Of a DNA stretch of 64,000 bases, positions 3,912-63,242 are shown piece by piece. The notes below the pieces were generated by a model. The model did not search any database. It was not told where the DNA came from and saw only the letters and a program-made list of their open reading frames with translations. Origin of the DNA: an uncultured Candidatus Berkelbacteria bacterium (GTDB taxonomy: Bacteria > Patescibacteriota > UBA1384 > UBA12157 > JAENIV01); assembly GCA_963698075.1 (NCBI GenBank), contig OY969116.1, positions 313,010-377,009 on the forward strand, in the 5' to 3' direction. Each line of letters opens with the position of its first letter. Positions within the stretch are counted from its first letter, which is position 1. Both the position numbers and the translations under genes were made by a program.

Positions 3912-5144
3912 TTAGGATGTGGCGATGCTAGCGTGCTCTTCGATACTAGCGTAAGGAAGGAAGGGCTCGACCCACTCCTCGACAGGTCTGGCGTCGAAGA
4001 TATTCCGGCGCAATAGCCGGTTGCCAACGGTTCCGATTGCCTGCTCCATCATCCAGACGGACTGGCGAGTGGCTTCCTCGATCTGCTGGTCAGTCACATA
4101 CTGGTTGATGTAATGGAGCCAGTCGTCCCCGTGGTCTCGCATTGCTGATTCCTTGGCCGCGTAGATCCCCTGTGCCCGGAAGACCGCGCGCTGGATCTCT
4201 TTATTCGCGGGAATCAGGTAATTGATATCACCTCGAGCGTAGGGAACTGCCAGGCGATTTTCATCGACCGTACAGGCGAAATCGCCGAAGCGTCCAGCGG
4301 CTTCCTCGACTTTGCCATCAATGTTGTCGATGCCCGCAGCCCGACAGAACGCGCGTTGATGATGGGCATTGCGCACTAACGTGGCCTGCCAGGCGGTGAA
4401 GGACAGATCGTCGAGATGCATGAAGCGCTGAGCTTCCTCGGGGGTGATGTCCTTATCGCCGGCCGGATCGTACTTTGCGTTGAAACTGATCGCCGGTTCA
4501 TCCATGAGGAATCCAGGGTTCGGAATCCGGTCGAGGTTGGCGTCGGCGAATACCTGCCGCATCTTGGGATCTTCCATGATTCCAGGAATCGCCCGAATCT
4601 CGTCGAGCCCGACGACCGTCTCGTCATAGGTCGCCAACTGCTCATAGCGATTCCCCATGCCCGCGGCGTTGAAGATCCGTTTGAATGTTGAGCTGCCGAG
4701 CGGGAAGCCGAACCGGAAGATGCATTCGGCGTCCGAGACGAAGGTCGTTATATGGCCGGCTGCGATGAGGCGGTGGTAGATGGCGCGGCTCTCGACAGTG
4801 AGAACGTCGCTGAGGATGTATGGGGTGGCCGCCAACCGCATAACCACCTTGTTGCTCTTCTCTCCTCGGTCAAGGAGAGTCCCGACGGTAACGACCTGGT
4901 CGCCATGATCCAGCATGCCGACGTAGGTGCTCCGGAACCCGGCCTTAGCCGCTTCTTCCCAGTAGTATGCCGCGGTCATCGCGAGGACATATCTCTTGCC
5001 ACGTATCTCCTGTGATGGAATCTTCTTCTTGAGATCGGCGACCGAGAAGCGCCCGCTGACGATCCACGGTCCGATGCCCAGGTACCAAAGCCCGGGCGCC
5101 ACGAATTGCGGCCAGGTTGGATCCAAGTCCTTGACGCTACCCAT
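3912..5144 (-). CDS. ATP-dependent purine-pathway-type ligase (PurP/FAICAR-synthetase-like or PurC-like); GC-rich, assignment uncertain
   Basis: 410 aa; segments YVLAMTAAYYWEEAAKAGFRSTYV and GMGNRYEQLATYDE resemble archaeal PurP (TIATLGSH..KGAKxEGFxTV; GARGGRGYFIA). Partial resemblance to SAICAR synthetase also noted. GC about 58% against the low-GC background. Confidence 0.3.
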   Translation of the reverse strand: MGSVKDLDPTWPQFVAPGLWYLGIGPWIVSGRFSVADLKKKIPSQEIRGKRYVLAMTAAYYWEEAAKAGFRSTYVGMLDHGDQVVTVGTLLDRGEKSNKVVMRLAATPYILSDVLTVESRAIYHRLIAAGHITTFVSDAECIFRFGFPLGSSTFKRIFNAAGMGNRYEQLATYDETVVGLDEIRAIPGIMEDPKMRQVFADANLDRIPNPGFLMDEPAISFNAKYDPAGDKDITPEEAQRFMHLDDLSFTAWQATLVRNAHHQRAFCRAAGIDNIDGKVEEAAGRFGDFACTVDENRLAVPYARGDINYLIPANKEIQRAVFRAQGIYAAKESAMRDHGDDWLHYINQYVTDQQIEEATRQSVWMMEQAIGTVGNRLLRRNIFDARPVEEWVEPFLPYASIEEHASIATS

Positions 5145-5163
5145 CGTTTCCTCCTTGCCTTTC

Positions 5164-5736
5164 CTAGCGTTGACCGGCTACCGCATTACCGGCCAAAACG
5201 ATGGCCTCATCCAAGAGTAGTACTTCGACCGGACGCGGCTTGGGAAGCTTGACCTCGGGGAGTTGTCCCTTGATGGCAAACCTGCAGGCACGCAAGAAAC
5301 CCTCGGATCCGACGAACGTGCGGATACCATCACCACTAACCACCTGGGTTCCTGGGACTTCCGTTATAGACAGCTTCGCTGCCAAGGTATGCTTGTTGTT
5401 GCTTGGATCTTCGAACGCTACTCCTACCACGATAATATGAGTGTCATTAAGAGAGTAGCGCAGATATGAATCGCATATCCCCGTGAGGTGATTTGCCCAT
5501 CCCGCCGCCGTTAACAGAACGTCGATTGGCGGCTTCATTTTGCTCAGAGACTCCAGATGAGCAAGCGTCTCCCGCGTTACACGATGGATGCTACTAGCCC
5601 GGATATCGATGAGCTCGATTTCCCCGTGCTTCTTGGCCGTTGCGAGCAACTGAAGGCCATCAAGGCACTGCTTGAGATCGGACTTTGAACCAACTATTAC
5701 AGCGATTCTTCTCATGCCGTGTTTTCCCTCCATCAC
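5164..5736 (-). CDS. PurE-like (AIR carboxylase / N5-CAIR mutase fold) protein, GC-rich
   Basis: IAVIVGSKSDL (GSxSD motif) and LLTAAGWANHLTG (AGxAAHLPG-like) match PurE-family signatures. Confidence 0.5.
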   Translation of the reverse strand: MMEGKHGMRRIAVIVGSKSDLKQCLDGLQLLATAKKHGEIELIDIRASSIHRVTRETLAHLESLSKMKPPIDVLLTAAGWANHLTGICDSYLRYSLNDTHIIVVGVAFEDPSNNKHTLAAKLSITEVPGTQVVSGDGIRTFVGSEGFLRACRFAIKGQLPEVKLPKPRPVEVLLLDEAIVLAGNAVAGQR

Positions 5737-20697: not shown

Positions 20698-21780
20698 ATG
20701 AAATATTTTATCTTTACACTCGGCTGCCAAATGAATGTGAGCGATTCAGAACGGATCGCCACCATTTTAGAAAAGCGGGGATACTCTCCGAACGCTGAGA
20801 AAGTGGCCGATTTAATTATCGTCAACGCTTGTTCGGTCCGCCAAAAGGCGGTTGACCGAATTTGGGGCAAAGTCAAAATTTGGCAACTGCACCATAAAAA
20901 AATTTTATTAACTGGCTGTGTTTTGCCTGCCGACCGCAAAAAATTTGCCGAAAAGGGGATTGGTTACTTAAACTTTTATGATGATAATTTTTTTGATATT
21001 GTCCCTAAAAACCTATCCCCTATAACCTATATACCGATCATGACTGGCTGTGATAATTTTTGCTCTTATTGTGCCGTCCCCTACACTCGCGGCCGCGAAA
21101 AATCCCGACCGGTAAAAGATATCTTGGACGATGTCAAACGTGCTCTCAAAGACAAATCTAAGGAAATATTATTGTTGGGCCAAAATGTCAATTCTTATGG
21201 AAAACTAAAAAGTAAAAACTCAAAAGTTAAAACTTCAACTAAAAAGTTAAAAGATAATAAAGAATTTATAAAACTATTAAAATCCATTGATAATCTGCCT
21301 GGAAATTTTAAGTTCAACTTTATTTCATCTAATCCCCATGATATGGACGATGAACTGATTAAAACTTTTGCTAAATTAAAAAAATGGCCCCGAGAACTTC
21401 ATCTGCCGCTCCAATCCGGTGATGACGAAATTCTACACAAAATGAATCGCAAATATACTAGCGCTCAATATCTTAAACTAATTGAAAATTTAAAATTTTC
21501 GCCGAAGGCAGGCATGCAAATTGAAAATTTATCTTTAACCACCGATATCATCGTCGGTTTTCCTGGTGAGACCAAAAAACAATTCGAAAATACTCTAAAA
21601 CTTTGTAAAAAAGTCAAGTTCGATAAAGCCTACATTGCCCAGTATTCCCCTCGCCCCGGCACCGCGGCAGCCGAATTTAGAGATGATGTTTTATCAACCG
21701 AGAAAAAAAGAAGATGGGAATTACTCGATAGCTTAATCAACAAAAAAACGACGGCTTGCCCCGTTAATGACGCACTGTGA
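20698..21780 (+). CDS. MiaB/RimO-family radical SAM methylthiotransferase (short form)
   Basis: N-terminal MTTase domain FTLGCQMN; radical SAM CDNFCSYCAVP. Confidence 0.7.
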   Translation: MKYFIFTLGCQMNVSDSERIATILEKRGYSPNAEKVADLIIVNACSVRQKAVDRIWGKVKIWQLHHKKILLTGCVLPADRKKFAEKGIGYLNFYDDNFFDIVPKNLSPITYIPIMTGCDNFCSYCAVPYTRGREKSRPVKDILDDVKRALKDKSKEILLLGQNVNSYGKLKSKNSKVKTSTKKLKDNKEFIKLLKSIDNLPGNFKFNFISSNPHDMDDELIKTFAKLKKWPRELHLPLQSGDDEILHKMNRKYTSAQYLKLIENLKFSPKAGMQIENLSLTTDIIVGFPGETKKQFENTLKLCKKVKFDKAYIAQYSPRPGTAAAEFRDDVLSTEKKRRWELLDSLINKKTTACPVNDAL

Positions 21781-21823
21781 TAACACTATGTAATAGGTTT
21801 CGCAGTAAGGAATTTTACGGGGT
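21759..21823. repeat. 65-bp repeat copy 1 (CCCCG...CGGGGT closed) overlapping the last 7 codons of the MiaB-like gene
   Basis: About 83% identical to 57850-57914: ccccgttaat..cgcact..ataa.actatg.aatag.ttt...agtaaggaatttt.cggggt. Confidence 0.4.
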
Positions 21824-21858
21824 GGCAGGTCTTAGAGAACTTGATTAATAAATAATAA

Positions 21859-22434
21859 TTAGTACTCTTCATATTTAACTTTTTTGGGAAAAAGCAAAAT
21901 GTACGGATAACCGTTGTAGTTTCGTATGATTTTACCAACTCCCAATTTTTTTAAAAATTGAATCATCTCGTTGGTAATTTCTACCGGCCTTTTAGTAGTT
22001 TTTCCCGCGAATTCGACCTCCACAAACTCACCCAATTTTTTTACTTGGGCGACTGAAATGATATAGGACTTGAATCTATAATCCAGACGTTTTTTATCGA
22101 CAACAACGATTGGTTTAAAATTGAGCGCTTTTAAAATCAATTTGAGTTGCTCCATATCATCTACAGCACTTTCATACTCATCCGAATAATGGCTTCTGTC
22201 ATCTTCGTCTACATGCCAATATTTATAATTAATTGAATTTCCTTTATCAGTCTGTCTTAATCGAAGCCATTCGACAGCCGGATATTTCTTGAGAAAATCC
22301 CGGTGAGTCGGTGTGTAATAATAATCAATTTGCCGGCTTTTACGCAACAATTTTGCCTTTTTGTTTAAAAAAGCTTTCAGGGGTCGAATATTTTCTAGCT
22401 GCACTTGGATTTCAATTTCAATAATTTTAGCCAT
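21859..22434 (-). CDS. CYTH-domain protein (class IV adenylate cyclase/thiamine triphosphatase-like)
   Basis: N-terminal IEIEIQV (ExExK-like) signature; about 190 aa. Confidence 0.55.
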   Translation of the reverse strand: MAKIIEIEIQVQLENIRPLKAFLNKKAKLLRKSRQIDYYYTPTHRDFLKKYPAVEWLRLRQTDKGNSINYKYWHVDEDDRSHYSDEYESAVDDMEQLKLILKALNFKPIVVVDKKRLDYRFKSYIISVAQVKKLGEFVEVEFAGKTTKRPVEITNEMIQFLKKLGVGKIIRNYNGYPYILLFPKKVKYEEY

Positions 22435-22499
22435 AGACAATTTTAAATTCATCATCAAAATATATCAAATTATGATTTTTGACAACTTAAGAGCAGGTC

Positions 22500-23642
22500 T
22501 TAGATTAGTTCATCTTGATCCGGACCTTGAATCCCCTTCTTCTTTCGATACCAGTTCCAAATAAGATAGGCAATGATGGTAATTAAAATTCCGGCCCCAA
22601 GAATGATTAAGGCTATTTTAGTCGACTGATTCAAGCCGGCAACTTGAACTTCGGGGCTGGCCGAAGGTATCGGTGAGCCAAATTCTTCTGGAGAGGTAAG
22701 GCCGGCTGACTCGGCGGCTGAAGGCGTGATTTGATTTGGTGTAGGCTCAACTTGGCCAATTATCGGTGGAGTTTCCGGTGATTGACTAACTGAAGTAGGA
22801 GTGGAAGTTGGCGTTGGTGTTGGTTGGGCCGCGGTTGGTGTATTTCCCTCTGGAGGAGGTGTCGACTGACACTCAGTGTTTTCAGAACATTGATTGGTTC
22901 CTTCACCCTCAATTGTATCGCAGGTTTGGCTATTGGAATTGCACACTCTATGGGTTTTTGGTTGGCAATCGGCATTAATCGCACATTCGTTGGTTCCAGC
23001 GCCGCTAATGGTTTCACAGACACGATTGGTAGTATTGCAAACCGTGTGGGTAGATTCTTCGGGGCCGGTGACATCATAAGTGCCGTTGACAACATTGGCC
23101 AAGATGCAGGTACCGTCGACCATCGAAATTATATTCGTATCATTTGTCGCCCCAGGAGTGAAATCAAAATATACCTGTGAAGCCGTTATCGGCTTTAAAG
23201 CTTTGAAGGTTGCGGTCGCAAAAATGCCGCTGCCAGTCCAGCCGGGAGAATTTTGTTCGGTTTTGACCATCCCCGAAAGGGCAATTTTTCCCGGATGGGA
23301 GTCAACTCGTTCGCCCATATAAATATCAAAAATAGTACCATTTTGAATTTGGACCCCGTCCTGATTTGGATCAGCGTCCTGAACTTCTAAAACTCCCGGA
23401 TCATAATTGAGATAAAAAAGATCTACCCCGACCACTGGCTGATTATCGGTATTAACTCTGATATTAACATTAAAAGTTTGGCCTTGAGCTACAATCAGCG
23501 AATTTGGTTGCAGCTCTAACGATGGGCCAGCCGCGGCCTCGGGTTTAATCTTACCTGTTTTCAATAGGTAGATTAAAGCTCCGATCAAAGCGATAACTAA
23601 AATAATGGCTAACCCAATAAAGATAAATTTCTTTTTGGCCAT
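22500..23642 (-). CDS. Membrane-anchored surface protein: cohesin-like domain, two Cys-rich repeats, P/T linker, C-terminal TM
   Basis: N-terminal TM then NVNIRVNTD...QVYFDFTPGATNDTN, a cohesin-like beta-sandwich paralogous to the next gene. VCNTTNRVCETISGAGTNECAINADCQ and VCNSNSQTCDTIEGEGTNQCSENTECQ repeats. Confidence 0.5.
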   Translation of the reverse strand: MAKKKFIFIGLAIILVIALIGALIYLLKTGKIKPEAAAGPSLELQPNSLIVAQGQTFNVNIRVNTDNQPVVGVDLFYLNYDPGVLEVQDADPNQDGVQIQNGTIFDIYMGERVDSHPGKIALSGMVKTEQNSPGWTGSGIFATATFKALKPITASQVYFDFTPGATNDTNIISMVDGTCILANVVNGTYDVTGPEESTHTVCNTTNRVCETISGAGTNECAINADCQPKTHRVCNSNSQTCDTIEGEGTNQCSENTECQSTPPPEGNTPTAAQPTPTPTSTPTSVSQSPETPPIIGQVEPTPNQITPSAAESAGLTSPEEFGSPIPSASPEVQVAGLNQSTKIALIILGAGILITIIAYLIWNWYRKKKGIQGPDQDELI

Positions 23643-23662
23643 CTATGCTCCTTTAATGATAT

Positions 23663-24700
23663 TTATTGATCTTGTAATAACCAGTTTAAACTTAACCAGG
23701 CAAAATCACTAGTGTTGACGATCCCATCCTTATTAATATCAGCCGAAGCCGTATTCTTAAACCAATTAACTAATAAAACTTGATAGTCGGCGGTGTTGAT
23801 AATATTATCGCCGTTGAGTTCTCCAGCTCTTAACTCGCCAAAATCAAGCGTTAAAGGATTGGTTAAAGGTTTATTAATCAGCGCATTGATTAGGTACATT
23901 CCCACTTTAATTCTAAAATCGTAGTTGCCGGCCGGTACACCGGTTAAAGTGAGACTGCCAACACCACTAGCATTGGTCGTCACATCTGTTTTTTCAAAAA
24001 TTTTAGTCGTCGTGCCGGTATTGTAGACTCTAAAGACCGTGCCACTAGTTGAAAAATCACTTCTCCCCTGAAGTTTTAAATTTATGGTGGTTGGTACGTC
24101 AGCGGGGACAAGGCTATAGCTTCCGTTAGTGACTGATAAAAGAATTTCCGCTGGCGGCACGTACGGCGACAAGGTTCCGGCTGACATCACGTTAGTATCG
24201 TTGGTCGCTCCTAAAGTAAAGTTAAAAGTCACCGGACTTGTTGCTGTCCGCAGAACTTTAAAGGTAATCGTGGCCAAAATCGCCGTCCCCGCACCGGTTG
24301 AATAACCTGTTGTACCGGGGTCAATCATGGCCGAATAATATATTTTTCCCAGTGTACTATCAACCGAATTGATCGCCACATTTTTATAAACCGTGGGGGT
24401 GTTGGCTTTAATCTGGACTCCGGCCGCGACGCTATCAGCGTCCTGAACTTCTAAATCTTGGGGATTATAATTTAACATTACATCCGTGCCTGAAGTTAAA
24501 CGCGAATTAGTATTGAGCAAAATATCGACATTGAAATTAGTGCCGATTATTTTGGTCCCGGAGTTTGGCGATAAAGCTAAAGTCGCCACTTCTCCCGCCG
24601 CAAAAGGTTTAATCTTACCGGTCCTGGCCATATAAATAATAAATCCGACTACAATAATCATCAGGACGATCAAAATCGCTAAAATAAATTTTTTCCTCAT
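23663..24700 (-). CDS. Cohesin-like + Ig-like + dockerin-domain surface protein
   Basis: C-terminal GELNGDNIINTADYQVLLVNWFK...ADINKDGIVNTSDFAWLSLNW are two dockerin-type Ca-binding repeats. N-terminal region paralogous to the upstream gene. Confidence 0.6.
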   Translation of the reverse strand: MRKKFILAILIVLMIIVVGFIIYMARTGKIKPFAAGEVATLALSPNSGTKIIGTNFNVDILLNTNSRLTSGTDVMLNYNPQDLEVQDADSVAAGVQIKANTPTVYKNVAINSVDSTLGKIYYSAMIDPGTTGYSTGAGTAILATITFKVLRTATSPVTFNFTLGATNDTNVMSAGTLSPYVPPAEILLSVTNGSYSLVPADVPTTINLKLQGRSDFSTSGTVFRVYNTGTTTKIFEKTDVTTNASGVGSLTLTGVPAGNYDFRIKVGMYLINALINKPLTNPLTLDFGELRAGELNGDNIINTADYQVLLVNWFKNTASADINKDGIVNTSDFAWLSLNWLLQDQ

Positions 24701-24717
24701 TTTTTACCTCCAATTAA

Positions 24718-25402
24718 TTATTGATCTTGTTGTAACCAATTTTGTGACAACCAAGCAAAATCGGCGGTATTAACGATTCCATCTTTATTAATATCGGCGG
24801 TTGCGTTGCTTGTAAACCAATTGACTAAAAGTATTTGATAATCAGCCGTATTAATAATATTGTCATTATTTAAAGCTCCGCCTCTTAATTCGCCGAAAGA
24901 AAAGCGTCATCGGATTCGAAAACGTTTTATTTGTTAAAGCGGTCACGAGATACATATTAACTTTTATTTTAAAATCGTAATTGCTGCCCACATTGAGTCC
25001 GGTGGGCACAACTGTCGCATTGCCTGAAGCATCAGTGGCGACGTTGTTTTGTTCGAAAACGAGCGTTGTTGTCCCAGGGATAAAAACTTTCAAATCGGTG
25101 TTGGTGGTCGAAAAATCAGTTCTTCCTTGAAGTTTAAGATTCAAATTTATAGTCGTGCCTGTCGGGCTGGGTGAAGGTGGGGGGGTCGTAACGGTCGTCG
25201 TCACCGTATTGCTTTGAGCTGATTTGTCCACGCCTCCTTCTTGATAATATATGGTCGCGGTGTTGGTAATATCATTTCCGGCGGCAAAAATGTTGAAAAA
25301 TTTATTCGCAATTAAAATTCCCGCAACAATAATAATTACTAATAGAATTATCCCAAGTTGGATTTTTCTTTTTCGAGGGATTTTTTTAAAAAAACGAATC
25401 AA
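24718..25402 (-). pseudogene. Dockerin-bearing paralog interrupted by a +1 frameshift near 24893-24905
   Basis: ORF 24866-25402 ends ...NPMTLFFRRIKRRSFK*. The -1 frame continues FGELRGGALNNDNIINTADYQILLVNWFTSNATADINKDGIVNTADFAWLSQNWLQQDQ* (dockerin), about 85% DNA identity to the 3' end of 23663-24700. Confidence 0.5.
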
Positions 25403-25478
25403 TACTCTAATATCCCCTCCTATTACTAGGGGATTTATCTAACATTATTGTCTAACTATCAGAAGAATATGTCAAGGT

Positions 25479-26975
25479 TTAATTTATTCTCACCTGAAAT
25501 GTTACCGTTCCCGAACCCCCGGCAGCCAAAGTTCCTAAGTTCCAGATGACTTTGGTACCATCAAAAGTCCCACCACTACTAGCCGAACCAGTAACGTAAG
25601 TCGTGCCATTGGGGATAAAATCTTCAAATCTAACATTGGTGTAAGGATTAGTTGACCCATTAGAATAATTTAACGTATAGGTTAATATTCCCCCTGTTTG
25701 CGCGGTAATCTTATCGACAGACTTGGTAACAACCAATGGCCCTACACAGGGATTGGGATAAGAATTAGGAGATATGGCGTTATTAATCTTGCCTCCGCCT
25801 GCCAAGGCATTCCATAAAGCCGTTTGTTCATCAGTGTCCCAGGTCCAAAAAAGCGCACCCTTAAAACCGAAGTTGCAAATGGCCGCTAAATGACTTCGGA
25901 GCATCGCCGCCGCTTGATCAAGATTAGGGTAGGAATATTTCAAAGCGCCAAACTCACCCACAAGACGGGGCTTATCTTTACCCAGTAGTCCAATCTCGGC
26001 TGAATTTAAATCAAGAGTAAGATCGTAACTCGTTCCAAGTGGATATTGGTGAATATCAATAAGATCGAGGTTCGAATCATACAGCGCTGTTGGCCTAAAA
26101 GGTGATCTAGGATCGGGATGTTCCGAATTAGTCGGTGCCACTCCGTCAAAGCCATCGCGTCCGACAGCTTTAGGAGTAAAAACACTGGTCTCTACTAAAA
26201 CATTTGGGTCCATACTTTTGATACCTTCTGTCATTTGGTTAACCCAATATTTAGCACTATTATCGGCGGCTAGCTGACGGCTAGTCGTGCTTGCCATATC
26301 ATAAGTACCTCCTTCTGCTGGTGTGACAAGTCCACTTGTCATCGAAAATGGCTCGACATTCGACTCAAAACGTCCCTCATTCCAAGGATCCCAAGAAAAT
26401 ATTGTCGAAAGTAAACTTGAATCAGTATTTTTTATATATTCAACCAGGTCAATCATCATCTCTTTATAGGCGACAACATATCTCTGACTCATAAAGATAG
26501 TATTTACCCCTCCGCCCTCGGCGTGAGGAGTCGGCGGTAAAGACCAGACAAAATAATAGTAATTCGAAGGTAACCATTCAGTTGTAATAATCACATAGAT
26601 TCCATGGGCGCGGGCACGCCTCATAAAATCAAGAAGATTGGTCATATAAGCTGGGTCAACTCCTGGCACTGTCAAGGCGCCGCCAAGGACTCTGGTATCG
26701 AGGAAAACACGCGTGATGTTATAGCCATTGTTTTGCATTTGTCCTAATGCCAGCTCTGATCTGGCTGCATCATAGCTTCCCGGATTAAACAAATTATGAT
26801 AGCCGTCGATCGCATCAAGCCGAATATAATTGTTGCCCCTTGGAGTAAAAGTGTTACCGGTCACGGTATCATAAAACTCTCCGTAATGATCAGCACCAAC
26901 TCTCGTGCCGATACGATGAGAAACTAAATCTTCGGCCAAAACTGCCTTAATATGGTATTTGGCCGGAAATATCAA
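25479..26975 (-). CDS. Glycoside hydrolase family 5-like enzyme with C-terminal Ig-like (DUF11-type) domain; apparent TTG start
   Basis: (beta/alpha)8-type motifs NEGR, GEFG. C-terminal TYTLNYSNGS...GSGTVTFQVRI domain shared with 27041-29287. No in-frame ATG between the upstream stop and TTG 26975. Confidence 0.6.
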   Translation of the reverse strand: MIFPAKYHIKAVLAEDLVSHRIGTRVGADHYGEFYDTVTGNTFTPRGNNYIRLDAIDGYHNLFNPGSYDAARSELALGQMQNNGYNITRVFLDTRVLGGALTVPGVDPAYMTNLLDFMRRARAHGIYVIITTEWLPSNYYYFVWSLPPTPHAEGGGVNTIFMSQRYVVAYKEMMIDLVEYIKNTDSSLLSTIFSWDPWNEGRFESNVEPFSMTSGLVTPAEGGTYDMASTTSRQLAADNSAKYWVNQMTEGIKSMDPNVLVETSVFTPKAVGRDGFDGVAPTNSEHPDPRSPFRPTALYDSNLDLIDIHQYPLGTSYDLTLDLNSAEIGLLGKDKPRLVGEFGALKYSYPNLDQAAAMLRSHLAAICNFGFKGALFWTWDTDEQTALWNALAGGGKINNAISPNSYPNPCVGPLVVTKSVDKITAQTGGILTYTLNYSNGSTNPYTNVRFEDFIPNGTTYVTGSASSGGTFDGTKVIWNLGTLAAGGSGTVTFQVRIN

Positions 26976-27040
26976 AAGAGTACCAATTAAATATATTGTC
27001 AGTAAAGATGTAGTAAATTGTTTTGTTTGAATAATTTTAC

Positions 27041-29287
27041 TTATTGTACTCTCACTTGAAATGTCATGTTTCCACTAGCGCCAGCAGCCAGATTTCCCAG
27101 ATTCCAAATCACTTTATTATTGGGCTGATCATAAGTGCCATTGTTGGTGGCCGAACCAATCACATAGGTGGTCCCCGTGGGAATTGGGTCTTCGATGCGC
27201 GTGTTGGTGACTGCTTGACTACCATTAGTATAGGATAAAGTGTAGGTTAAAGTATCGCCTGAAGCCGCTTGGGTTTTGTCAACGGATTTAGAGAGAGTTA
27301 TTGTTGGAGTTGTGCCACCAGGCAGAATAAAAATATGATCCGCGCCACCAGATTCTCCACTTGAATCTTTGGAAAAGACTCGGAAATGGTAGAGTGGAGC
27401 AACCAGCCCAGTCAACTGTAATGAATGATTGGTGGTGGAGGTTGCGTCAGTCTTTGTTTGACCATAATTAGTGGTTTCACCATAATCAACTTTCGAATCT
27501 GAAGCTTTATCAGTTTGCCAGATAATAGTGGCAGTTTTGGCGGCTGAATCAACCGCTGCGATTACATTGGAGATAATTGGCGCTTGATTGGTTGCGCCTA
27601 AAACTATGGTCATCTCTTTGGAATTTGTCATGTTAAGACTTGGTAATGTAAATGTTGGCAGACTCGATTTCGAAACCGTAATGTCGTGAGGTGTATAGCT
27701 GGTTTTGGTTGGCGTTGTACCGCCCAAAACATTGCCTTGTTGAAAATACTCGGTTAGCTCTAATCTCGCCCGGCCACTCGAATCTGTCGTTGCCGTGGGA
27801 CTTTCCGTGCCTCCTCCTTTGGCCACGGCCGAAACAGTTGCTCCGGAGACAGCGTTACCTGCATTATCTTTAACTAAAGTATCCAAATACCACTTAAAAT
27901 ATAAGCTGTATGTTCCACCGCCACTTTGTGAAGTTTGAACAATATCATGAACATCGGCTCCATTGAGAACTTTAGTATCAATAAAAATCTCATTTTTAGC
28001 AGCATAATTCGAGAAACCTTCGCCAATGGTGTGATAATTAATTGGACTATCGCCTTTAATTAGGGTATTGGAGCTAAAGACAAGGCCATCAGCTCCTTGA
28101 CCATCGTAGGTGCTGAATTGAATATTAATGTTGTTGCTGGTAATAGTATTATTATAGATTTTCGAACCGGTATTGGCAGCAACATAGCCGGCAACCGCTA
28201 TCCCATAGGCATATTTGGGTTTGGTTGAAGGAGTGATTATCGCTTTAATATTGTTGTTATAAAATTCATTATTGAGGTTTGATGGGCCATCATAAATCCC
28301 TATACCAGCTGCCTGATCGACTAAACCATCACCAGTTTGCGTCGTAATGTCATTGTCATGAACTTTTAAATTATAAGAATTTGTCCCCGGTGGAATTCGA
28401 CATTTAATTCCCCAGGCAAAATAGCCAGAGCCATATTCTGATTTTGGACCCATCTGAACATTAATTGTATTGGAATAAACCTCAACATCTTGGACTTCAT
28501 TATCAACCAAAATTCCCAAACCATCAGTCGTGTGAATATAATTTTCATAAACTTTGGTACTATGTGGCTTATATAAGGCAACACCGAAACCATTGCTGTC
28601 AACCGCTTTATGGTTAATGTCATTGCGGTAGACGCGGCTGTTAGGAGCAGTGGTATTAAAAGCAATGCCGCCATGGCCACCAATAATTTTATTATCATGA
28701 ATATCATAATTCTGACCTTGTTGGACTTGGAGGGCATAACCATCATAGGCCATCCGGTTGCCGATAGCGGCGACGCTGCTTCGAAAAATATTATCATGAA
28801 TGCTCAGATTGATTGTTCCTCTTTCGTTAACCGAGGTTGAAGAATTACCCCGGACTGAAACATCCAGACCACTGAGTTCAACATTCCTTGGATTAGTGTT
28901 GTAAATATAGATCGCATAGCTGTAAGTTGAAGTGCCTTGTTGAACAATTTTACCGTTTTTAAGCTTAAAGCCGTTATCATCCAAATTGACCCAGTGGCTG
29001 GCATCACCAATGGTCACTCCTGAAAGACCATTTGTGCCTGATGAGGCCGTATCAAAATTAATTGTCTTGCCATTCAAATCCAAAACAATCCCTGTGGCTG
29101 TAATCGTAAAACAGGTCCCGGTCGCTGAAACATCTTGATCTAAAATATAGGTCGTATTGGCTTGGGAAAGCAGTCCGCAAGCGGAAATGTGGACTTCGGC
29201 CGCTTGGGCTTTGGGAATCTTAAAACCCAAAGAAACAGCCAAAAGAACCATAAGCGCGATGATAAAAGTGAAAACATATTTCTTCAT
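27041..29287 (-). CDS. Secreted right-handed parallel beta-helix protein with the same C-terminal Ig-like domain
   Basis: Signal peptide, repeated PbH1-like HDN/NNTI turns, C-terminal TYTLSYTNGS...GNMTFQVRV. Confidence 0.55.
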   Translation of the reverse strand: MKKYVFTFIIALMVLLAVSLGFKIPKAQAAEVHISACGLLSQANTTYILDQDVSATGTCFTITATGIVLDLNGKTINFDTASSGTNGLSGVTIGDASHWVNLDDNGFKLKNGKIVQQGTSTYSYAIYIYNTNPRNVELSGLDVSVRGNSSTSVNERGTINLSIHDNIFRSSVAAIGNRMAYDGYALQVQQGQNYDIHDNKIIGGHGGIAFNTTAPNSRVYRNDINHKAVDSNGFGVALYKPHSTKVYENYIHTTDGLGILVDNEVQDVEVYSNTINVQMGPKSEYGSGYFAWGIKCRIPPGTNSYNLKVHDNDITTQTGDGLVDQAAGIGIYDGPSNLNNEFYNNNIKAIITPSTKPKYAYGIAVAGYVAANTGSKIYNNTITSNNINIQFSTYDGQGADGLVFSSNTLIKGDSPINYHTIGEGFSNYAAKNEIFIDTKVLNGADVHDIVQTSQSGGGTYSLYFKWYLDTLVKDNAGNAVSGATVSAVAKGGGTESPTATTDSSGRARLELTEYFQQGNVLGGTTPTKTSYTPHDITVSKSSLPTFTLPSLNMTNSKEMTIVLGATNQAPIISNVIAAVDSAAKTATIIWQTDKASDSKVDYGETTNYGQTKTDATSTTNHSLQLTGLVAPLYHFRVFSKDSSGESGGADHIFILPGGTTPTITLSKSVDKTQAASGDTLTYTLSYTNGSQAVTNTRIEDPIPTGTTYVIGSATNNGTYDQPNNKVIWNLGNLAAGASGNMTFQVRVQ

Positions 29288-29301
29288 TTTTCTCCTTTCA
29301 A

Positions 29302-29919
29302 TTATTTATTAACATAAAAAGAATAAGTACCGGTTGGTGGCGTTCTTAAGACATAACCAGTAGTGATTGCATAGTAAGTATGATCTCCTGCTCGCATTTT
29401 TTTGGTATAAACGCAAGAAGAAGCAGTACAAGTCTTGACTACCCTATTATCAAGGTAAATCTTGATTGTTTTCACCCAATGATTGGGATCATTAGCTACT
29501 TGGGCAGTCAGGCTAACATAAGTAAACCGGTTGGGATTAGTCGGCGACTCTGAAACAGAAAGTTGTGGCGGGGCTGTTGGCGAAACACTGGGCGAAGGCG
29601 TGGGAGTTGATGGACTTGGTGATTCGATTGGCTTGGAAGAGGACGTCGGACTGGTTATTGGCGACGGTGATGGGGATGGAGTAAAAATAGTCGTCAGAAT
29701 CGTATTGGAAGAAATTGAATGACTATTGCCAGATGAATCTTGATAACTCAATAGGGCCGTGTTGGAGATAGAATTAGTCAGAGCCAAAGGATTTATCCTA
29801 CCAATTACCGCTGCCAAAATAATTCCGGCACAAATTAAAATTATAAAGATAAGAAATAATTCATAAATTAATTTTTGTCTTTTTGGAAGAGTCCGAAGTT
29901 TTCTAAAAAAATTATTCAT
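29302..29919 (-). CDS. Membrane-anchored P/S-rich surface protein
   Basis: N-terminal TM; SPSPSP linker paralogous to the N-terminus of 24866-25402. Confidence 0.35.
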   Translation of the reverse strand: MNNFFRKLRTLPKRQKLIYELFLIFIILICAGIILAAVIGRINPLALTNSISNTALLSYQDSSGNSHSISSNTILTTIFTPSPSPSPITSPTSSSKPIESPSPSTPTPSPSVSPTAPPQLSVSESPTNPNRFTYVSLTAQVANDPNHWVKTIKIYLDNRVVKTCTASSCVYTKKMRAGDHTYYAITTGYVLRTPPTGTYSFYVNK

Positions 29920-29964
29920 CGCCCTCCTTGAGAGCTTAGATAATTTCTTGGTTCAAATTTAATA

Positions 29965-31164
29965 CTATTTCAGTTCATTGTCAAGATTTTTAATCCATGC
30001 TGAAATTTTTTGAGTTTTTAATTCCTTTGAACCGCGAATTCTTGCGGTGATATTTTCCGCTTTTTCCTCTTTATCACCAACAACAATAATATAGGGTATC
30101 TTTTGTAATTCGGCGTCGCGGATTTTTTTGTTGATCGATTCGTTGCGGTCATCAATTTCCAATCTTACCTCGCCCATTTCTTTGGCGACTTTTTTAGCAT
30201 AGTCAAGGTGCTTTTCCGATACCGGCAAAATTACCGTCTGTACTGGTGAAAGCCACGCCGGCAATGCACCGGCAGTATGTTCCAATAAAACCGCGATAAA
30301 CCGTTCCACTGATCCCAAAATCGCCCGATGGATAATTACAGGATGTTTTTTGGCGCCACTTTTGTCAATATAATTGGCATCCAATCTTTCAGCCGTGGCA
30401 AAATCAAGCTGGATCGTCCCCATCTGCCACGAACGACCAATTGAATCTTTGACATGGAAATCAATTTTCGGACCGTAAAAAGCCCCCTCGCCTTTATTTT
30501 CTTTATATTCAATTTTCGCATCTTTAAGAGCTTTAATTAAACCGGCTTCAGCCTTCCGCCACTGTTCGTCTGTGCCAATTGATTTTTCTGGCCGAGTGGA
30601 AAGCTCAATTTTCACATCTTCAAAGCCGTATCTTTTGTAAGTTTCATAGACAAAATCAATCATCCCCAAAATTTCCTCTTCCATTTTATCCTCGGTGCAA
30701 TAAACATGGGCATCATCGATCGTCAATGCCCGCGCCCGCAATAGTCCATTAACTTCCCCCGGTTGTTCATAACGATAAACTGTACCAATCTCAGAAAATT
30801 TCATTGGCAGATCTTTATAAGAACGCATTTCTTCATTGAAAATAATAATTGAACCAGGACAATTCATTGGCTTAAGACACCAGTTGACTTTTTTCCCGGC
30901 CATCTCCTTTTCATTGCCAACAAAAAAGAGCTTCTCACGATAATTATCGTAGTGACCGCTGGCTTTGAGAGTTTCTAAACTAATAATTGTCGGGGTAATG
31001 AGATCCCGGTATCCTTGCTCGGCCAATTTCTTCTTGAGATCATTCACAATTAAGTTAAAAAGTATCGTCCCTTTAGGCCACCAATAACAAGTCCCGGGCA
31101 CAGTTCGGGAAAAACTAAATAATCCTAATTTTCGGCCAATTTCTTTGTGATCGACTGCTGGCAT
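29965..31164 (-). CDS. thrS: Threonyl-tRNA synthetase, catalytic + anticodon-binding domains only
   Basis: Starts at the DHKEIGRKLGLF region (E. coli RDHRKIGKQLDLY, about residue 240). Class II motifs present. The approximately 240 N-terminal residues (N1/N2 editing domains) are absent. Confidence 0.8.
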   Translation of the reverse strand: MPAVDHKEIGRKLGLFSFSRTVPGTCYWWPKGTILFNLIVNDLKKKLAEQGYRDLITPTIISLETLKASGHYDNYREKLFFVGNEKEMAGKKVNWCLKPMNCPGSIIIFNEEMRSYKDLPMKFSEIGTVYRYEQPGEVNGLLRARALTIDDAHVYCTEDKMEEEILGMIDFVYETYKRYGFEDVKIELSTRPEKSIGTDEQWRKAEAGLIKALKDAKIEYKENKGEGAFYGPKIDFHVKDSIGRSWQMGTIQLDFATAERLDANYIDKSGAKKHPVIIHRAILGSVERFIAVLLEHTAGALPAWLSPVQTVILPVSEKHLDYAKKVAKEMGEVRLEIDDRNESINKKIRDAELQKIPYIIVVGDKEEKAENITARIRGSKELKTQKISAWIKNLDNELK

Positions 31165-31226
31165 AACTTCTCCTATAAATATTCTACTACAATAATTCTC
31201 TGGATACAAGGAGAAGTTAAGATAGT

Positions 31227-38062: not shown

Positions 38063-38365
38063 GGGGCTATCAAGCTTCGACGGGAAACAATTTGACAATT
38101 TCAAGTCGAGAAGGCTACGAACCTCGCAAAATCCGTGGCAAACACTAAACGCTAACAAGCAATTAGTACCTGCCTTAGCCTAATAGGCTAATGCACGTCG
38201 TTCCATTTGTTGGTTGACCGAATGGAAACGGCGCCAACCGTCAACCTCTGGGGATGGAAGATCGTCCTGGTACTATCCTTGAAACAAACGAGGGCAAATG
38301 CTAAGCTTGTCAACGATTATCAAAGAGTTTTTCGGACGGGAGTGCGATTCTCCCTAGCTCCACCA
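38063..38365 (+). ncRNA. ssrA: tmRNA (ssrA), short form with encoded CCA
   Basis: 5' GGGGCUAUCAAGCUUCGACGGG and 3' GGACGGGAGUGCGAUUCUCCCUAGCUCCACCA match tmRNA tRNA-like-domain consensus. Internal frame gct aac aag caa tta gta cct gcc tta gcc TAA TAG (tag ANKQLVPALA). Confidence 0.8.
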
Positions 38366-49913: not shown

Positions 49914-49989
49914 TGGTGCCCTCGGCAGGATTTGAACCCGCGACCTCTGGCACCGGAGGCCAGCGTTCTGTCCACTGAACTACGAGGGC
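49914..49989 (-). tRNA. tRNA-Arg (anticodon CCG) with CCA
   Basis: rc gccctcgtagttcagtggacagaacg-ctggc-ctccggt-gccag-aggtc-gcggg-ttcaaat-cctgc-cgagggc-a-cca. Confidence 0.85.
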
Positions 49990-49990
49990 C

Positions 49991-50066
49991 TGGCGCCCTC
50001 GGGCCGAGTCGAACGGCCAACCTCTCCCTTAGGACGGGATCGCTCTATCCATTGAGCTACGAGGGC
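49991..50066 (-). tRNA. tRNA-Arg (anticodon CCT) with CCA
   Basis: rc gccctcgtagctcaatggatagagcg-atccc-gtcctaa-gggag-...-ggccg-ttcgact-cggcc-cgagggc-g-cca; 1-nt spacer to the previous tRNA. Confidence 0.8.
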
Positions 50067-50171
50067 TTTAGATAGATTTTATCATTTTTGTAAGATATAA
50101 TAAACTTGTTTAAAGAATCACTCCTTAGGGAGAAGTTTTTTTCAAAGAGTAAATTTGAAAATAAAGTTACT

Positions 50172-50246
50172 CGGGGACTGGCCTAATGGTAAGGCGCAGC
50201 GTTCGGGACGCTGAGATTCCGGGTTCGACTCCCGGGTCCCCGACCA
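50172..50246 (+). tRNA. tRNA-Pro (anticodon CGG) with CCA
   Basis: cggggac-tg-gcct-aatggta-aggc-g-cagcg-ttcggga-cgctg-agat-tccgg-gttcgac-cccgg-gtccccg-a-cca. Confidence 0.85.
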
Positions 50247-56363: not shown

Positions 56364-56441
56364 TGGTAGCGCCGACGGGATTCGAACCCGTGATCTCCAG
56401 GATGAAAACCTGGTATCCTAAACCAACTAGACGACGGCGCC
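56364..56441 (-). tRNA. tRNA-Glu (anticodon TTC) with CCA
   Basis: rc ggcgccg...ccagg-ttttcat-cctgg...acggg-ttcgaat-cccgt-cggcgct-a-cca. Its 5' 25 nt are duplicated at 56516-56540. Confidence 0.85.
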
Positions 56442-56861
56442 ATAATGCTTATTTGTCAACTAACGATATATTTCTGGAGCTTTGTTCCAGTGGATGAAAA
56501 CCGCCGTGTACGGCCCTAAACCAACTAGACGACGGCGCCATATTACCATTTTATATGACAATAAGCCTGAAGTAAAGGAGAAACGGTTTTGCTGCAACAA
56601 AAATAACCCCTCGCATAAAGCTGTGGGTTACACCCTTACTTCCTTGTCGCTTCTGGCTTGCCACCCGAAGCTCCAAAGGAACGAAAGGTGGAGAGACATT
56701 CGGGTCTAGAACCTTTTGGCTCTTTTTTATTAATGAAGCAATTTCCTTTTTTCATAAAGGGGTTTAATTTCTTCAGTTAATTGGTTAGTCACTGCATTCC
56801 CTTCATTCTTTTCTCTGTGGTCTCGATCTACAGCCGTGTATGAGATTTGCCACTGTATTCG

Positions 56862-57422
56862 TTATTTAGTCTGATTTAGCGCATCTTTAATATTGCCCCA
56901 GTATTCTTTGGTCGTATCGAAGAACGGTACATTCAGCTTCTTGCAAACCTCCTCTAAACGTTTACTTTCTGATATCAAAAACTCGAACTCCTCAAGTAAT
57001 TCCTCGTTGCTCATTTCATTAGTCCAGTTGGTTACGTCAAATTCGCGGCATTTTGCCAGTCGTTCTTGTGGTGTTGTATTTGGATAACCAAATACAAAAT
57101 ATTGTAAGTGAGGATACTTCGCATACAAATCCTCAAGCGGCAGAAGGAAGCCTTCAATCACAAAGCCATCTACATCCATTCCGTCGATCATTCGGAAGAC
57201 AAAAGGTCTAAACTTTTGACACACCTCGATGTGTTCTTTGAGGTTGGGCGCTCTATGTGTAATACCTAGCTGCGGAAACACATCCTCAAATCCCTCGATA
57301 ATCGGGTCAATACAAATATGCTGAACAAAATATTTCTTCACCAATTCGTGAGAAAAAGTAGACTTACCGGCAGTGGGTACGCCAGTGACTATAAATTGAT
57401 GAAATTTCTGTTCTTGTCCCAT
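56862..57422 (-). CDS. P-loop NTPase/kinase-like protein
   Basis: IVTGVPTAGKST Walker A; 186 aa; sits between the two tRNA-fragment scars. Confidence 0.4.
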   Translation of the reverse strand: MGQEQKFHQFIVTGVPTAGKSTFSHELVKKYFVQHICIDPIIEGFEDVFPQLGITHRAPNLKEHIEVCQKFRPFVFRMIDGMDVDGFVIEGFLLPLEDLYAKYPHLQYFVFGYPNTTPQERLAKCREFDVTNWTNEMSNEELLEEFEFLISESKRLEEVCKKLNVPFFDTTKEYWGNIKDALNQTK

Positions 57423-57498
57423 AACTTGAATCCCTTTGTTCTTGTATCTTAGAGTCTTTTTTGCTTCTCCTACCTTTTACGCGGTCCCAAGCTTCTAA

Positions 57499-57540
57499 TT
57501 GGAGGGCTCGGTGGGATTCGAAGGTCGGTGTCCAACCGAC
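57499..57540 (-). repeat. Duplicated 3' end (24 nt) of tRNA-Lys fused to GGTCGGTGTCCAACCGAC motif
   Basis: ttggagggctcggtgggattcgaa is identical to 57685-57708 of tRNA-Lys, followed by the 18-nt hairpin motif instead of the T-stem. Confidence 0.5.
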
Positions 57541-57685
57541 GTCTCGATTCGTGCTTGTATTGGTTTATCTTAATTTAATGGCTCAATCCATCTGAGCCGT
57601 TCAATTTCTATCTCGTCGGCTATCATTGTGGGTTCTCACCCAACCGACCCAAGCCAGAAACCCCGATAAACCAGGGGTTCTGGCT

Positions 57686-57760
57686 TGGAGGGCTCGGTGG
57701 GATTCGAACCCACGACAAGTTGCTTAAGAGGCAACTGCTCTGCCACTGAGCTACGAGCCC
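57686..57760 (-). tRNA. tRNA-Lys (anticodon CTT) with CCA
   Basis: rc gggctcg-ta-gctc-agtggca-gagc-a-gttgc-ctcttaa-gcaac-ttgtc-gtggg-ttcgaat-cccac-cgagccc-t-cca. Confidence 0.85.
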
Positions 57761-57761
57761 A

Positions 57762-57834
57762 CGCCCTCGGCGTGATTCGAACACGCAACCTAAGGGTTAG
57801 AAACCCTTCGCTCTATCCATTAAGCTACGAGGGC
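57762..57834 (-). tRNA. tRNA-Arg (anticodon TCT), no CCA
   Basis: rc gccctcg-ta-gctt-aatggata-gagc-g-aaggg-tttctaa-ccctt-aggtt-gcgtg-ttcgaat-cacgc-cgagggc-g. Confidence 0.8.
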
Positions 57835-61924: not shown

Positions 61925-62000
61925 TGGGGTGGCTGACGCGATTCGAACGCGCGACCGCTCGGGCCACATCCGAGTGCTCTACCACTGAGCTACAGCCACC
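61925..62000 (-). tRNA. tRNA-His (anticodon GTG) with encoded G-1 and CCA
   Basis: rc g-gtggctg-ta-gctc-agtggta-gagc-a-ctcgg-atgtggc-ccgag-cggtc-gcgcg-ttcgaat-cgcgt-cagccac-c-cca. Confidence 0.85.
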
Positions 62001-62186
62001 ATATATAAAATGAATCTGCCTTTTGAAGGCCAAATCTCAAATTCTTGCTGATAAATCAATAAATCCCTAAACTACTACTTTTTACGGGACGCCAACCACC
62101 AAATCAGGGCAACGACGACGACGGCAATGACTACCCACCAATACCAAACCATTAAAATCTCCTTTCATTATCATTATACCATTAAT

Positions 62187-62261
62187 TGGTGCCCCCGGGT
62201 GGATTCGAACCACCAACTCTAGGTCCGAAGCCTAGTGTTTTATCCGTTATACTACGGGGGC
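62187..62261 (-). tRNA. tRNA-Arg (anticodon TCG) with CCA
   Basis: rc gcccccg-ta-gtat-aacggata-aaac-a-ctagg-cttcgga-cctag-agtt-ggtgg-ttcgaat-ccacc-cgggggc-a-cca. Confidence 0.8.
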
Positions 62262-62518: not shown

Positions 62519-62601
62519 TATTGGCCTCGTATATCCTCTTTGCTTCGCAAATTAGGAAACGCGGCTCATCCCGTTTCCTGTCATAGACAGGATATACGGG
62601 A

Positions 62602-62675
62602 TGGAGCGGGTAGCGGGAGTCGAACCCGCATCTTCACCTTGGAAGGGTGACATAATGCCGCTATACGATACCCGC
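62602..62675 (-). tRNA. tRNA-Gly (anticodon TCC) with CCA
   Basis: rc gcgggtatcgtatagcggcattatg-tcacc-cttccaa-ggtga-agat-gcggg-ttcgact-cccgc-tacccgc-t-cca, near-identical in layout to E. coli tRNA-Gly(UCC). Confidence 0.85.
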
Positions 62676-62707
62676 AAAATTATAAATTTACTCTCCAAGA
62701 ATTCCCA

Positions 62708-63238: not shown

Positions 63239-63242
63239 TTAT

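Follow-up and report, generated by a model that had tools for sequence, protein, structure and literature searches.

The CLIPPER (DUF11) domain has a CnaA-like fold in which an Asp-catalysed intramolecular isopeptide bond normally joins a Lys of the first strand to an Asn of a late strand, and in structure 9IFR this triad consists of K715, D748 and N806 (PMC12617251). DUF11 folds of seven to nine strands have been reported, and some of them lack isopeptide bonds (PMC12617251). Comparable chemistry between subunits has been described in BsaA of Clostridium perfringens, where donor-strand exchange is followed by a Lys-Asn lock (donor Asn35, acceptor Lys74, with Glu56; bioRxiv 10.1101/2024.11.04.621531), and in archaeal thread filaments, which combine donor-strand exchange with an intermolecular Lys-Asn isopeptide lock (PMC9715654). 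Here we describe an operon at positions 22500-29919 of a 64,000-nucleotide (nt) stretch of contig OY969116.1 from an uncultured Candidatus Berkelbacteria bacterium (the window, meaning this whole stretch). Its two cargo proteins each end in an incomplete CLIPPER domain, here called the catcher, and two other proteins carry near their N-termini a two-strand segment, here called the tag, that matches the missing part. The best explanation, which we hold with reasonable confidence, is that tag-bearing adaptors are attached to the enzymes, probably by a covalent bond, and dock in turn on cohesin anchors.

The proposed arrangement resembles BsaA and the archaeal threads in that an N-terminal Asn donor located beside a signal sequence would enter, outside the cell, a partner's incomplete sheet that carries Lys and an acid. 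Both of those form homopolymers whose subunits each carry tag and acceptor and have other folds (BsaA is a remote TasA homolog), whereas the window halves lie on separate proteins, belong to the CnaA-like CLIPPER fold and would give a defined heterodimer and no fibre. In the engineered pairs isopeptag/pilin-C, SpyTag/SpyCatcher, SnoopTag and DogTag (PMC5487036, PMC8878318), a reactive strand split from a CnaA or CnaB domain likewise re-docks and ligates. Isopeptag/pilin-C, along with SpyTag/SpyCatcher, is the closest engineered precedent; in the window pair, as in isopeptag/pilin-C, the Asn would sit on the tag, and both the Lys and the acid on the catcher. All of these are laboratory constructs, however, while the window pair would be a product of natural evolution encoded in a genome, and its tag comprises two strands (~33 amino acids (aa)) instead of one. 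The CLIPPER domains of fibrillar adhesins (9IFR, PMC12617251) share with the window domains sequence membership (50-56 bits), a structural match (that of a catcher-tag chimera) and the aligned Lys and Asp, but each of them is a whole domain with its bond inside one chain, usually as one of a tandem series of stalk repeats, in contrast to the single terminal half-domains of the window. Chaperone-usher pili also have an Ig-like fold that is short of its C-terminal strand and is completed by the N-terminal extension of another protein; unlike them, the window system has no chaperone or usher, donates two strands, may include a covalent lock and would be used for enzyme attachment. The survey that described CLIPPER makes no mention of 'truncated', 'strand complementation' or 'Catcher' (PMC12617251), and in the literature searched we found no description of a naturally split CLIPPER or isopeptide domain or of isopeptide chemistry in Patescibacteria. 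As proposed, the system combines two known kinds: isopeptide-locked donor-strand exchange and display through cohesin and dockerin.

The operon comprises six consecutive open reading frames (ORFs) on the minus strand, named A to F. The original prediction had spoken of a seven-gene cluster of which six consecutive genes lay on the minus strand; the cluster is real and the six genes are seen in the ORF list, the count of seven having arisen from the two pieces of the frameshifted gene C. Strong Shine-Dalgarno sites (AGGAG or GGAGG) lie 5-12 nt ahead of the start codon in A, B, C, E and F.

Gene A, 22500-23642, minus strand: 380 aa; cohesin, Cys-rich and P/S/T-rich regions, C-terminal transmembrane (TM) segment
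Gene B, 23663-24700, minus strand: 345 aa; cohesin, prealbumin-like domain, C-terminal dockerin
Gene C, 24718-25402, minus strand: 227 aa when intact, frameshifted in the window; tag, prealbumin-like domain, dockerin
Gene D, 25479-26975 as listed from a TTG codon, minus strand: 498 aa; GH5-like domain and C-terminal DUF11/CLIPPER; probable true start upstream
Gene E, 27041-29287, minus strand: 748 aa; probable beta-helix and C-terminal DUF11/CLIPPER
Gene F, 29302-29919, minus strand: 205 aa; P/S-rich; no Pfam match

Apparent half-domains in proteins C, D, E and F

Profile scores were compared with the Pfam gathering thresholds (GA), which are 24.1 bits for Cohesin, 22.9 for Dockerin_1, 23.5 for PF00150, 24.6 for DUF11 and 23.6 for NosD. 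Against DUF11 (PF01345), full-length D scored 55.6 bits, with a match that runs from profile position 2 to 84 of 114 and stops with the end of the protein, and full-length E scored 50.9 bits over positions 3-84, up to its stop codon; the corresponding TIGR01451 scores were 47.2 and 45.9 bits. The two C-terminal domains are 58% identical to each other, and the shared C-terminal domain that had been noticed in the GH5 and beta-helix proteins is DUF11/CLIPPER in both. The catchers occupy aa 410-498 of D (25482-25748; K418 and D451) and aa 659-748 of E (27044-27313; K667 and D700). Both stop after the seventh strand, keep the Lys and the catalytic Asp, and are without the last two strands, including the one that bears the Asn. 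The DUF11 match also ends at profile position 82-84 in 10 further cargo proteins from related loci, and a complete CLIPPER domain with the full Lys/Asp/Asn triad in one chain was found in neither D nor E nor 10 relatives.

The tags of C and F sit directly after an N-terminal hydrophobic stretch. In C the tag spans aa 42-73 (25184-25279; sequence 'GNDITNTATIYYQEGGVDKSAQSNTVTTTV') with N47 as the candidate reactive Asn. It is preceded by an 'IPKRK' motif and a TM segment (aa 14-32) and followed by a P/S linker, the prealbumin-like domain and the dockerin; local hidden Markov models (HMMs) detect the same domains in C. In F the tag spans aa 48-80 (29680-29778; sequence 'TNSISNTALLSYQDSSGNSHSISSNTILTTI'), has N53 as its Asn candidate and scores 55 bits with the tag HMM. 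An 'LPKRQK' motif and a TM segment (aa 21-39) lie ahead of it, and a P/S-rich linker leads to a 78-aa C-terminal domain. Searched against Pfam, F matched no family at E<=1. The Ig-like ends and the paralogous P/S-rich N-termini were originally listed as separate details; both are present, and they are apparently the two halves of one CLIPPER domain.

The complementarity of the halves was examined by appending a tag or a control tail to a catcher and rescoring the chimera against Pfam DUF11. The D catcher alone scored 62.0 bits (positions 2-84), rising to 74.4 bits with the C tag, when the match covered positions 2-114 of 114, and to 68.9 bits with the F tag. With four control tails (two unrelated window sequences, the reversed tag and the shuffled tag) it scored 61.6-63.6 bits. 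The E catcher went from 58.1 bits alone to 68.7 with the C tag and 64.1 with the F tag, and a catcher from the Berkelbacteria locus L006 from 51.6 bits to 55.6-58.6 with its own three tags. AlphaFold2, run on the single sequence, folded the chimera of D catcher and C tag with a mean pLDDT (predicted local distance difference test) of 81.7 and a predicted TM score (pTM) of 0.72, the tag region forming strands at 84-91; with an unrelated 38-aa tail the same catcher reached 46.5 and a pTM of 0.42, and the Lys-bearing first strand was unfolded. The best Protein Data Bank (PDB) match of the chimera fold was 9IFR (E 6e-6, TM score 0.61-0.63), followed by the CnaA-type pilins SpaD and BcpA. A phmmer alignment to 9IFR placed the catcher Lys on K715 and the Asp of 'EDxIP' on the catalytic Asp. 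Among distinct sequences from Candidate Phyla Radiation (CPR) bacteria, the Lys (in xKxxDK) and the Asp are invariant in 21/21 catchers, and the Asn of 'N(T/N/M)A' is invariant in 9/9 tags. The profile complementation, the AlphaFold2 models, the 9IFR match and the triad together describe an incomplete fold and a partner that carries the missing strands and the reactive residue.

The possibility that an enzyme completes its catcher in cis, with its own N-terminus, was considered and rejected, as neither D nor E has a tag-like segment after the signal peptide.

The N-terminal hydrophobic segments of A, B, C and F may be either cleaved signal peptides or membrane anchors. A 'TG(K/R)I(K/R)PxAA' sequence follows the segment in A, B and the tag carriers of two related loci (L004 and L006), with the variants 'NIFAA' in C and 'GRINPLAL' in F. 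Because A has a C-terminal TM segment, N-terminal cleavage is favoured, in A at least. The cytoplasmic 'LPKR(K/Q)' motif of the tag carriers, on the other hand, is a hint of retention. The basic motif, more broadly '(I/L)PKR(K/Q)', stands ahead of the TM segment in all tag carriers with an N-terminal TM segment (window 25280-25402 and 29779-29919; L004 7361-7510; L006 6162-6300; L097 3641-3770), A and B being without it, and it may be a targeting or retention signal. The C-terminal 78 aa of F (29302-29540) hold two Cys and gave only a weak hint of Big_7 (E 0.068); this domain could be a binding module that is delivered to the ligated enzyme.

Scaffold proteins, cargo enzymes and gene structure

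The domain content suggests that A is an anchoring scaffold, B an adaptor scaffold and C a tag adaptor. The cohesins (PF00963) of A and B scored 42.2 and 29.2 bits, both above GA, in agreement with the two paralogs with N-terminal cohesin-like domains that had been predicted. The A cohesin covers aa 41-191 (about 23070-23522). The protein begins with a hydrophobic segment with 'TGKIKPEAAA' and ends with a TM segment at aa 343-361 (about 22560-22616) and a basic tail; hydropathy gives a TM segment at both ends. Orthologs of A with the same layout are present in L004, L006, L086 and L088, and the cohesin of the L086 ortholog scored 37.4 bits. Between the cohesin and the P/S-rich linker of A, at aa ~195-270 (22830-23060), lie two tandem Cys-rich repeats, HTVCNTTNRVCETISGAGTNECAINADCQ and HRVCNSNSQTCDTIEGEGTNQCSENTECQ, for which no family match was obtained.

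Protein B consists of an N-terminal hydrophobic segment, the cohesin (aa 39-198), a prealbumin-like domain (aa 199-288) and a dockerin (aa 289-345; 23666-23836). The dockerin carries duplicated 12-residue Ca-binding loops, ELNGDNIINTAD and DINKDGIVNTSD, which are the repeats quoted in the original prediction, and it scored 22.8 bits with NCBIfam dockerin_GC. Within the B family, Dockerin_1 was matched in 15/15 members and Cohesin in 12/15 at E<=1e-3 (best Dockerin_1 value 8.8e-9), and the Ca-loop positions (D/N at 1, 3, 5, 9 and 12) are conserved in 15 orthologs (consensus DLNNDNIVNSLD...DINQDGIVNTxD). The dockerin of C scored 25.8 bits as a fragment in the shifted frame (24721-24894), above GA, and 21.7 bits in the intact protein, below it; that of the L086 ortholog scored 31.2 bits, above GA. 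By profile search, then, the cohesin modules are genuine and, at the level of the family, so are the dockerins; the modules are not generic Ig-like domains only. Dockerins have a precedent in CPR bacteria: one cultivated Saccharibacterium has an essential dockerin protein (PMC10633639).

The operon had been read as a miniature cellulosome-like assembly. Like the cellulosomes of Clostridium thermocellum, with CipA and anchoring scaffoldins, it has type-I-like cohesin and dockerin modules and a hierarchy of an anchor (A), a cohesin and dockerin adaptor (B) and carbohydrate-active enzymes, all encoded together in one operon. What defines a cellulosome, however, is that its enzymes bear dockerins. 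Neither Pfam nor the local dockerin HMM detected a dockerin in D or E, the dockerins being on B and C only, and because neither enzyme has one the cellulosome reading is only partly right; the proposed link is instead the split CLIPPER domain. The window system also differs from cellulosomes in its anchoring by a C-terminal TM helix and not by SLH domains or sortase, in having one cohesin per scaffold, and in its host, a CPR-related bacterium with a 0.93-Mb contig.

The presence of a GH5-like enzyme in the same operon as cohesin and dockerin modules was borne out by a family-profile search, although the assignment stands at the level of the family and its catalytic residues and the Pfam score of D by itself is sub-threshold. 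Homologs of D at 33-38% identity carry PF00150 or bear cellulase-family names. Single-sequence PDB searches with the catalytic parts of D and E gave no match; a profile of 11 D-family members matched solved GH5 mannanases and cellulases, mannanases first (best 2c0h, E 3.5e-10). In these 11 sequences the GH5 catalytic residues E200 (with N199), Y311 and E341-F342-G343 are invariant and H309 is nearly so. We take N199/E200 to be the NE acid/base, E341 of the EFG motif the nucleophile and H309/Y311 the His/Tyr motif.

The start codon of D had been singled out as an odd TTG with no ATG option. No ATG is indeed available, but the TTG at 26975 is probably not the true start, as it has no Shine-Dalgarno site and initiation there would delete the signal peptide. 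Signal peptides of 28-33 aa precede a conserved 'SHRIGTR' motif in the D orthologs P0199 and P0200. In the window the frame is open upstream to 27074 and encodes a signal-peptide-like 'SKIIQTKQFTTSLLTIYLIGTLLIFPAKYHIKAVLA' ahead of EDL, and the only possible starts are ATA or ATT. From the sequence, the true start is probably upstream of the TTG, at ATA 27044 or at ATT 27035 or 27032, which would add a signal peptide. The ATA at 27044 overlaps the TAA stop of E as ATAA, and the sequence is identical in an independent assembly. A single G-to-A change in an ancestral ATGA overlap of E and D could give this arrangement. Non-canonical initiation, coupled initiation and a weakened gene are all possible.

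Protein E has a canonical signal peptidase site (between AQA and A), an Asn-ladder repeat region, Big_1/CarboxypepD_reg-like and fn3-like domains and the C-terminal catcher; orthologs are present in L006 and L086. The Asn-ladder region is probably a right-handed beta-helix, as originally predicted, to judge from conserved Asn residues ~23-33 residues apart, a spacing compatible with PbH1 repeats, and from a weak match to NosD (PF05048) of 18.3 bits, below GA. Pfam gave no match to PF13229. The claim stays weak because searches against PDB sequences, with the single sequence and with a 3-sequence profile, found nothing.

The third dockerin paralog, gene C, had been described as frameshifted, and both the dockerin and one extra T, in a run of T4 at 24900-24903, are present in the window sequence. 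The Logan assembly L001 is identical to the window at 12,159/12,160 aligned positions; it has T3 and an intact 227-aa gene ending in the dockerin. Because the homopolymer T is the sole difference from this independent assembly, the frameshift most likely arose as an error in sequencing or assembly, or else is a minor variant. A programmed frameshift was rejected on the same grounds.

Related loci and co-occurrence of catchers and tags

Homologs of the window proteins include ones named Berkelbacteria and Azambacteria. An order of catcher enzymes, then a tag-(cohesin)-prealbumin-dockerin protein, then a cohesin anchor recurs in the window and in L004, L006, L086, L088, L090 and L097.

L004 (JGI metagenome): three catcher-ending enzymes; tag-cohesin-prealbumin-dockerin protein; B ortholog; two cohesin proteins, one with a C-terminal TM segment
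L006 (Berkelbacteria RBG_13_40_8): two catcher enzymes; tag-cohesin-dockerin protein; B and A orthologs; 241-aa double-tag protein
L086 and L088 (metagenome contigs): different cargo enzymes, followed by orthologs of C and A only
L090 (metagenome contig): a catcher enzyme, a tag-prealbumin-dockerin protein and a cohesin protein, in that order
L097 (metagenome contig): one tag protein with three catcher enzymes; neither cohesin nor dockerin was detected

L086 and L088 are syntenic with the window between the threonyl-tRNA synthetase gene (ThrRS) and MiaB/L25, with flanks at 75-78% nt identity (stretches compared: L086 2030-11267, L088 2012-8577, window 20698-31209), and both are without B and F. 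Because they keep a C-like adaptor and an A-like anchor and swap the enzymes, the site behaves as a cargo-swapping cassette, and the minimal system according to these two loci is an enzyme-catcher, a tag-dockerin adaptor and a cohesin-TM anchor. The catalytic parts of the ten further cargo proteins are mostly without a Pfam family, one heparinase-II-like C-terminal domain excepted.

The 241-aa protein of L006 (3179-3904, minus strand; the same gene is found at L092 335-1060) has a canonical signal peptide, two tandem tags, an acidic low-complexity linker and a C-terminal TM segment. It could be a membrane anchor for two catcher enzymes that uses neither cohesin nor dockerin.

Outside the CPR, the complete repeats of adhesins from other phyla show the catcher-like part, a few residues, and then the tag part ('l.NtAtv...sNtv'). 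Many proteins there end in an orphan catcher, and 17 of them also have an orphan tag right after their own signal peptide; an orphan N-terminal tag and an orphan C-terminal catcher on one protein is the architecture needed for a head-to-tail donor-strand polymer. Among 153 non-redundant loci, which are not phylogenetically independent, orphan N-terminal tags were nearly confined to those with orphan C-terminal catchers: both were found in 31, an orphan catcher only in 42, an orphan tag only in 2 and neither in 78 (odds ratio by Fisher's test 28.8, p = 4e-10).

In sphingomonads, Deltaproteobacteria and Syntrophales we observed proteins of ~160-620 aa with an orphan tag after the signal peptide, a C-terminal orphan catcher, or both (L023 6747-14120; L074 9281-16977; L029; L053; L078; L014 7495-9366; L056 3082-4765). 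The L023 and L074 operons also encode a protein of ~1,600-1,700 aa with an N-terminal tag and an outer-membrane-like C-terminal end. This set looks like an undescribed donor-strand, possibly isopeptide-locked, fibre system. Paenibacillus and metagenome-assembled genomes of Bacillota encode giant multi-repeat DUF11 adhesins (~1,800-2,300 aa) that end in an orphan catcher, '...TFQVLVLS' followed by the stop codon (L009-L012, L017, L031, L033-L035, L037 and L048); the tag HMM found no orphan tag in their 10-kb flanks.

Broader searches contributed little on half-domains. An exhaustive HMMER search with the two window catchers returned 28,485 proteins, and the best 150 of these were all multi-repeat proteins of 1,019-7,419 aa with 8-45 matched stretches each; because the matches listed were all of this kind, the search was uninformative on terminal half-domains. 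The padded tag alignment, searched against a set of 5.8 billion proteins, gave 21 candidates, 0 of them scored. A scan of genome contigs with the catcher alignment returned generic DUF11 of other phyla only and no CPR genome, and these served as the background set.

Elsewhere in the window, a segment at 3912-5736 has a local GC content of 54% against ~41% elsewhere and contains two ORFs, one of 190 aa from a GTG start that is AIR-carboxylase-like and one of 410 aa without a Pfam match; the segment may be acquired DNA. The threonyl-tRNA synthetase ORF at 29965-31209 is short (414 aa from a TTG without a Shine-Dalgarno site; the Logan gene call gives 399 aa). Only tRNA-synt_2b and anticodon-binding domains are present, and therefore the N-terminal editing region appears to be absent. 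Rfam identified a tmRNA gene and several tRNA clusters with 12 tRNAs in total (38063-38365; 49917-50243; 56367-57834; 61928-63318).

Proposed assembly, alternatives and significance

We propose that, in this CPR/Patescibacteria bacterium, the operon encodes a modular system that displays polysaccharide-active enzymes on the cell surface. The GH5-like protein D and the probable beta-helix protein E would be exported, each ending in an incomplete CLIPPER catcher. After export, the two-strand tag of C or F would insert into the catcher and complete its beta-sandwich, as in donor-strand complementation, and the rebuilt Lys-Asp-Asn triad would then probably form an autocatalytic Lys-Asn isopeptide bond that ligates the enzyme to the adaptor. 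The C dockerin would bind the cohesin of B (cohesin and dockerin adaptor) or of A (cohesin and membrane anchor), thereby tethering the enzymes, and F would offer them a different C-terminal module. We think it fairly probable that the D and E catchers are complemented in trans by the tags of C and F, and the split CLIPPER domain is the likely link between enzymes and scaffold. The covalent Lys-Asn step is also probable, at a confidence below that of the complementation itself.

Several points weigh against this proposal. Its support is computational, and the AlphaFold2 tests covered a single pair, artificially fused into one chain. The 4-12 bits that the tags add to the profile score are a modest gain, and the phmmer alignment, of low confidence in this stretch, puts the tag Asn three residues away from N806. 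Two of the family assignments fall short of their thresholds: the B dockerin scored 21.2 bits with Dockerin_1 (PF00404), just under GA, and D alone scored 20.9 bits with PF00150. The tags lie ~10 residues from a very hydrophobic segment and, if this is uncleaved, the catcher must dock at the membrane face. L087, L093 and L095 are catcher loci without a nearby tag in 1.9-3.8 kb of downstream sequence, and the dependence among the 153 loci bears on the co-occurrence test.

Much of the evidence would look the same if the tags completed the catchers non-covalently, as in chaperone-usher pili and TasA, with Lys, Asp and Asn having a structural role only. The profile chimeras and the AlphaFold2 models, that is, all of the complementation evidence, fit this equally well; BsaA oligomers are stable in sodium dodecyl sulfate even without the isopeptide Asn (bioRxiv 10.1101/2024.11.04.621531), and some DUF11 domains form no isopeptide bond (PMC12617251). 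We nevertheless regard a purely non-covalent union as unlikely. The triad is invariant in 21 catchers and 9 tags despite an overall identity of ~50-60% and, because many DUF11 domains have lost these residues (PMC12617251), its invariance is as expected if the chemistry has been retained. Less probable again is an ordinary non-cellulosomal cohesin-dockerin cluster, in which the DUF11 ends would be complete short Ig-like spacers or wall-binding modules, the motif shared by C and F an unrelated sorting or stalk element, and the enzymes simply secreted. Cohesin-dockerin pairs are widespread outside cellulosomes, and the three catcher loci without a nearby tag would be expected on such a reading. 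DUF11 folds of as few as seven strands, within the reported range of seven to nine (PMC12617251), would also suit it. It is opposed by the cut at the same profile position in all cargo proteins, by the precise match of the tags, and not of control tails, to the missing profile segment, by the confident AlphaFold2 fold obtained only with the tag, and by the co-occurrence of orphan tags and orphan catchers.

It may also be asked whether the pieces are decaying pseudogenes, left by gene fission or an assembly artefact in a broken enzyme-CLIPPER-linker-dockerin gene. The D-to-C gene order fits a former fusion, C is frameshifted and D has no canonical start. The frameshift is missing, however, from the otherwise identical independent assembly; at least 7 loci, whose proteins are 37-60% identical, keep the split with the hydrophobic segment before the tag, and their ORFs are intact and have Shine-Dalgarno sites; and some tags are doubled, as in the 241-aa protein of L006, or lie on a protein whose position does not follow the order of a fusion (F is upstream of E). 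We consider this explanation highly improbable.

Taken at its widest, the proposal has two parts: a naturally evolved heterotypic tag/catcher ligation that clips any catcher-ending enzyme covalently onto a CPR cohesin-dockerin scaffold, and the same split domain, on one polypeptide, as a widespread, so far undescribed module for head-to-tail polymerisation in the surface fibres of sphingomonads, Deltaproteobacteria, Syntrophales and others. In this full form we advance it tentatively, as a possibility with somewhat less than an even chance of being right.

If confirmed, the display system would be a natural counterpart of SpyTag/SpyCatcher with which cells attach enzymes to a scaffold, and it would provide new orthogonal tag/catcher pairs for protein engineering. 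The role of the CLIPPER family would widen to assembly between molecules, beyond the intramolecular stabilisation of stalks, and the abrupt half-domain ends of many DUF11 proteins of other phyla would be explained. For the organism itself, it would mean that a very small genome reuses one adaptor and one anchor for interchangeable enzymes, a picture that fits the relatives that keep adaptor and anchor at the same chromosomal site with different cargo, and it would offer a concrete model for the surface biology of CPR bacteria.

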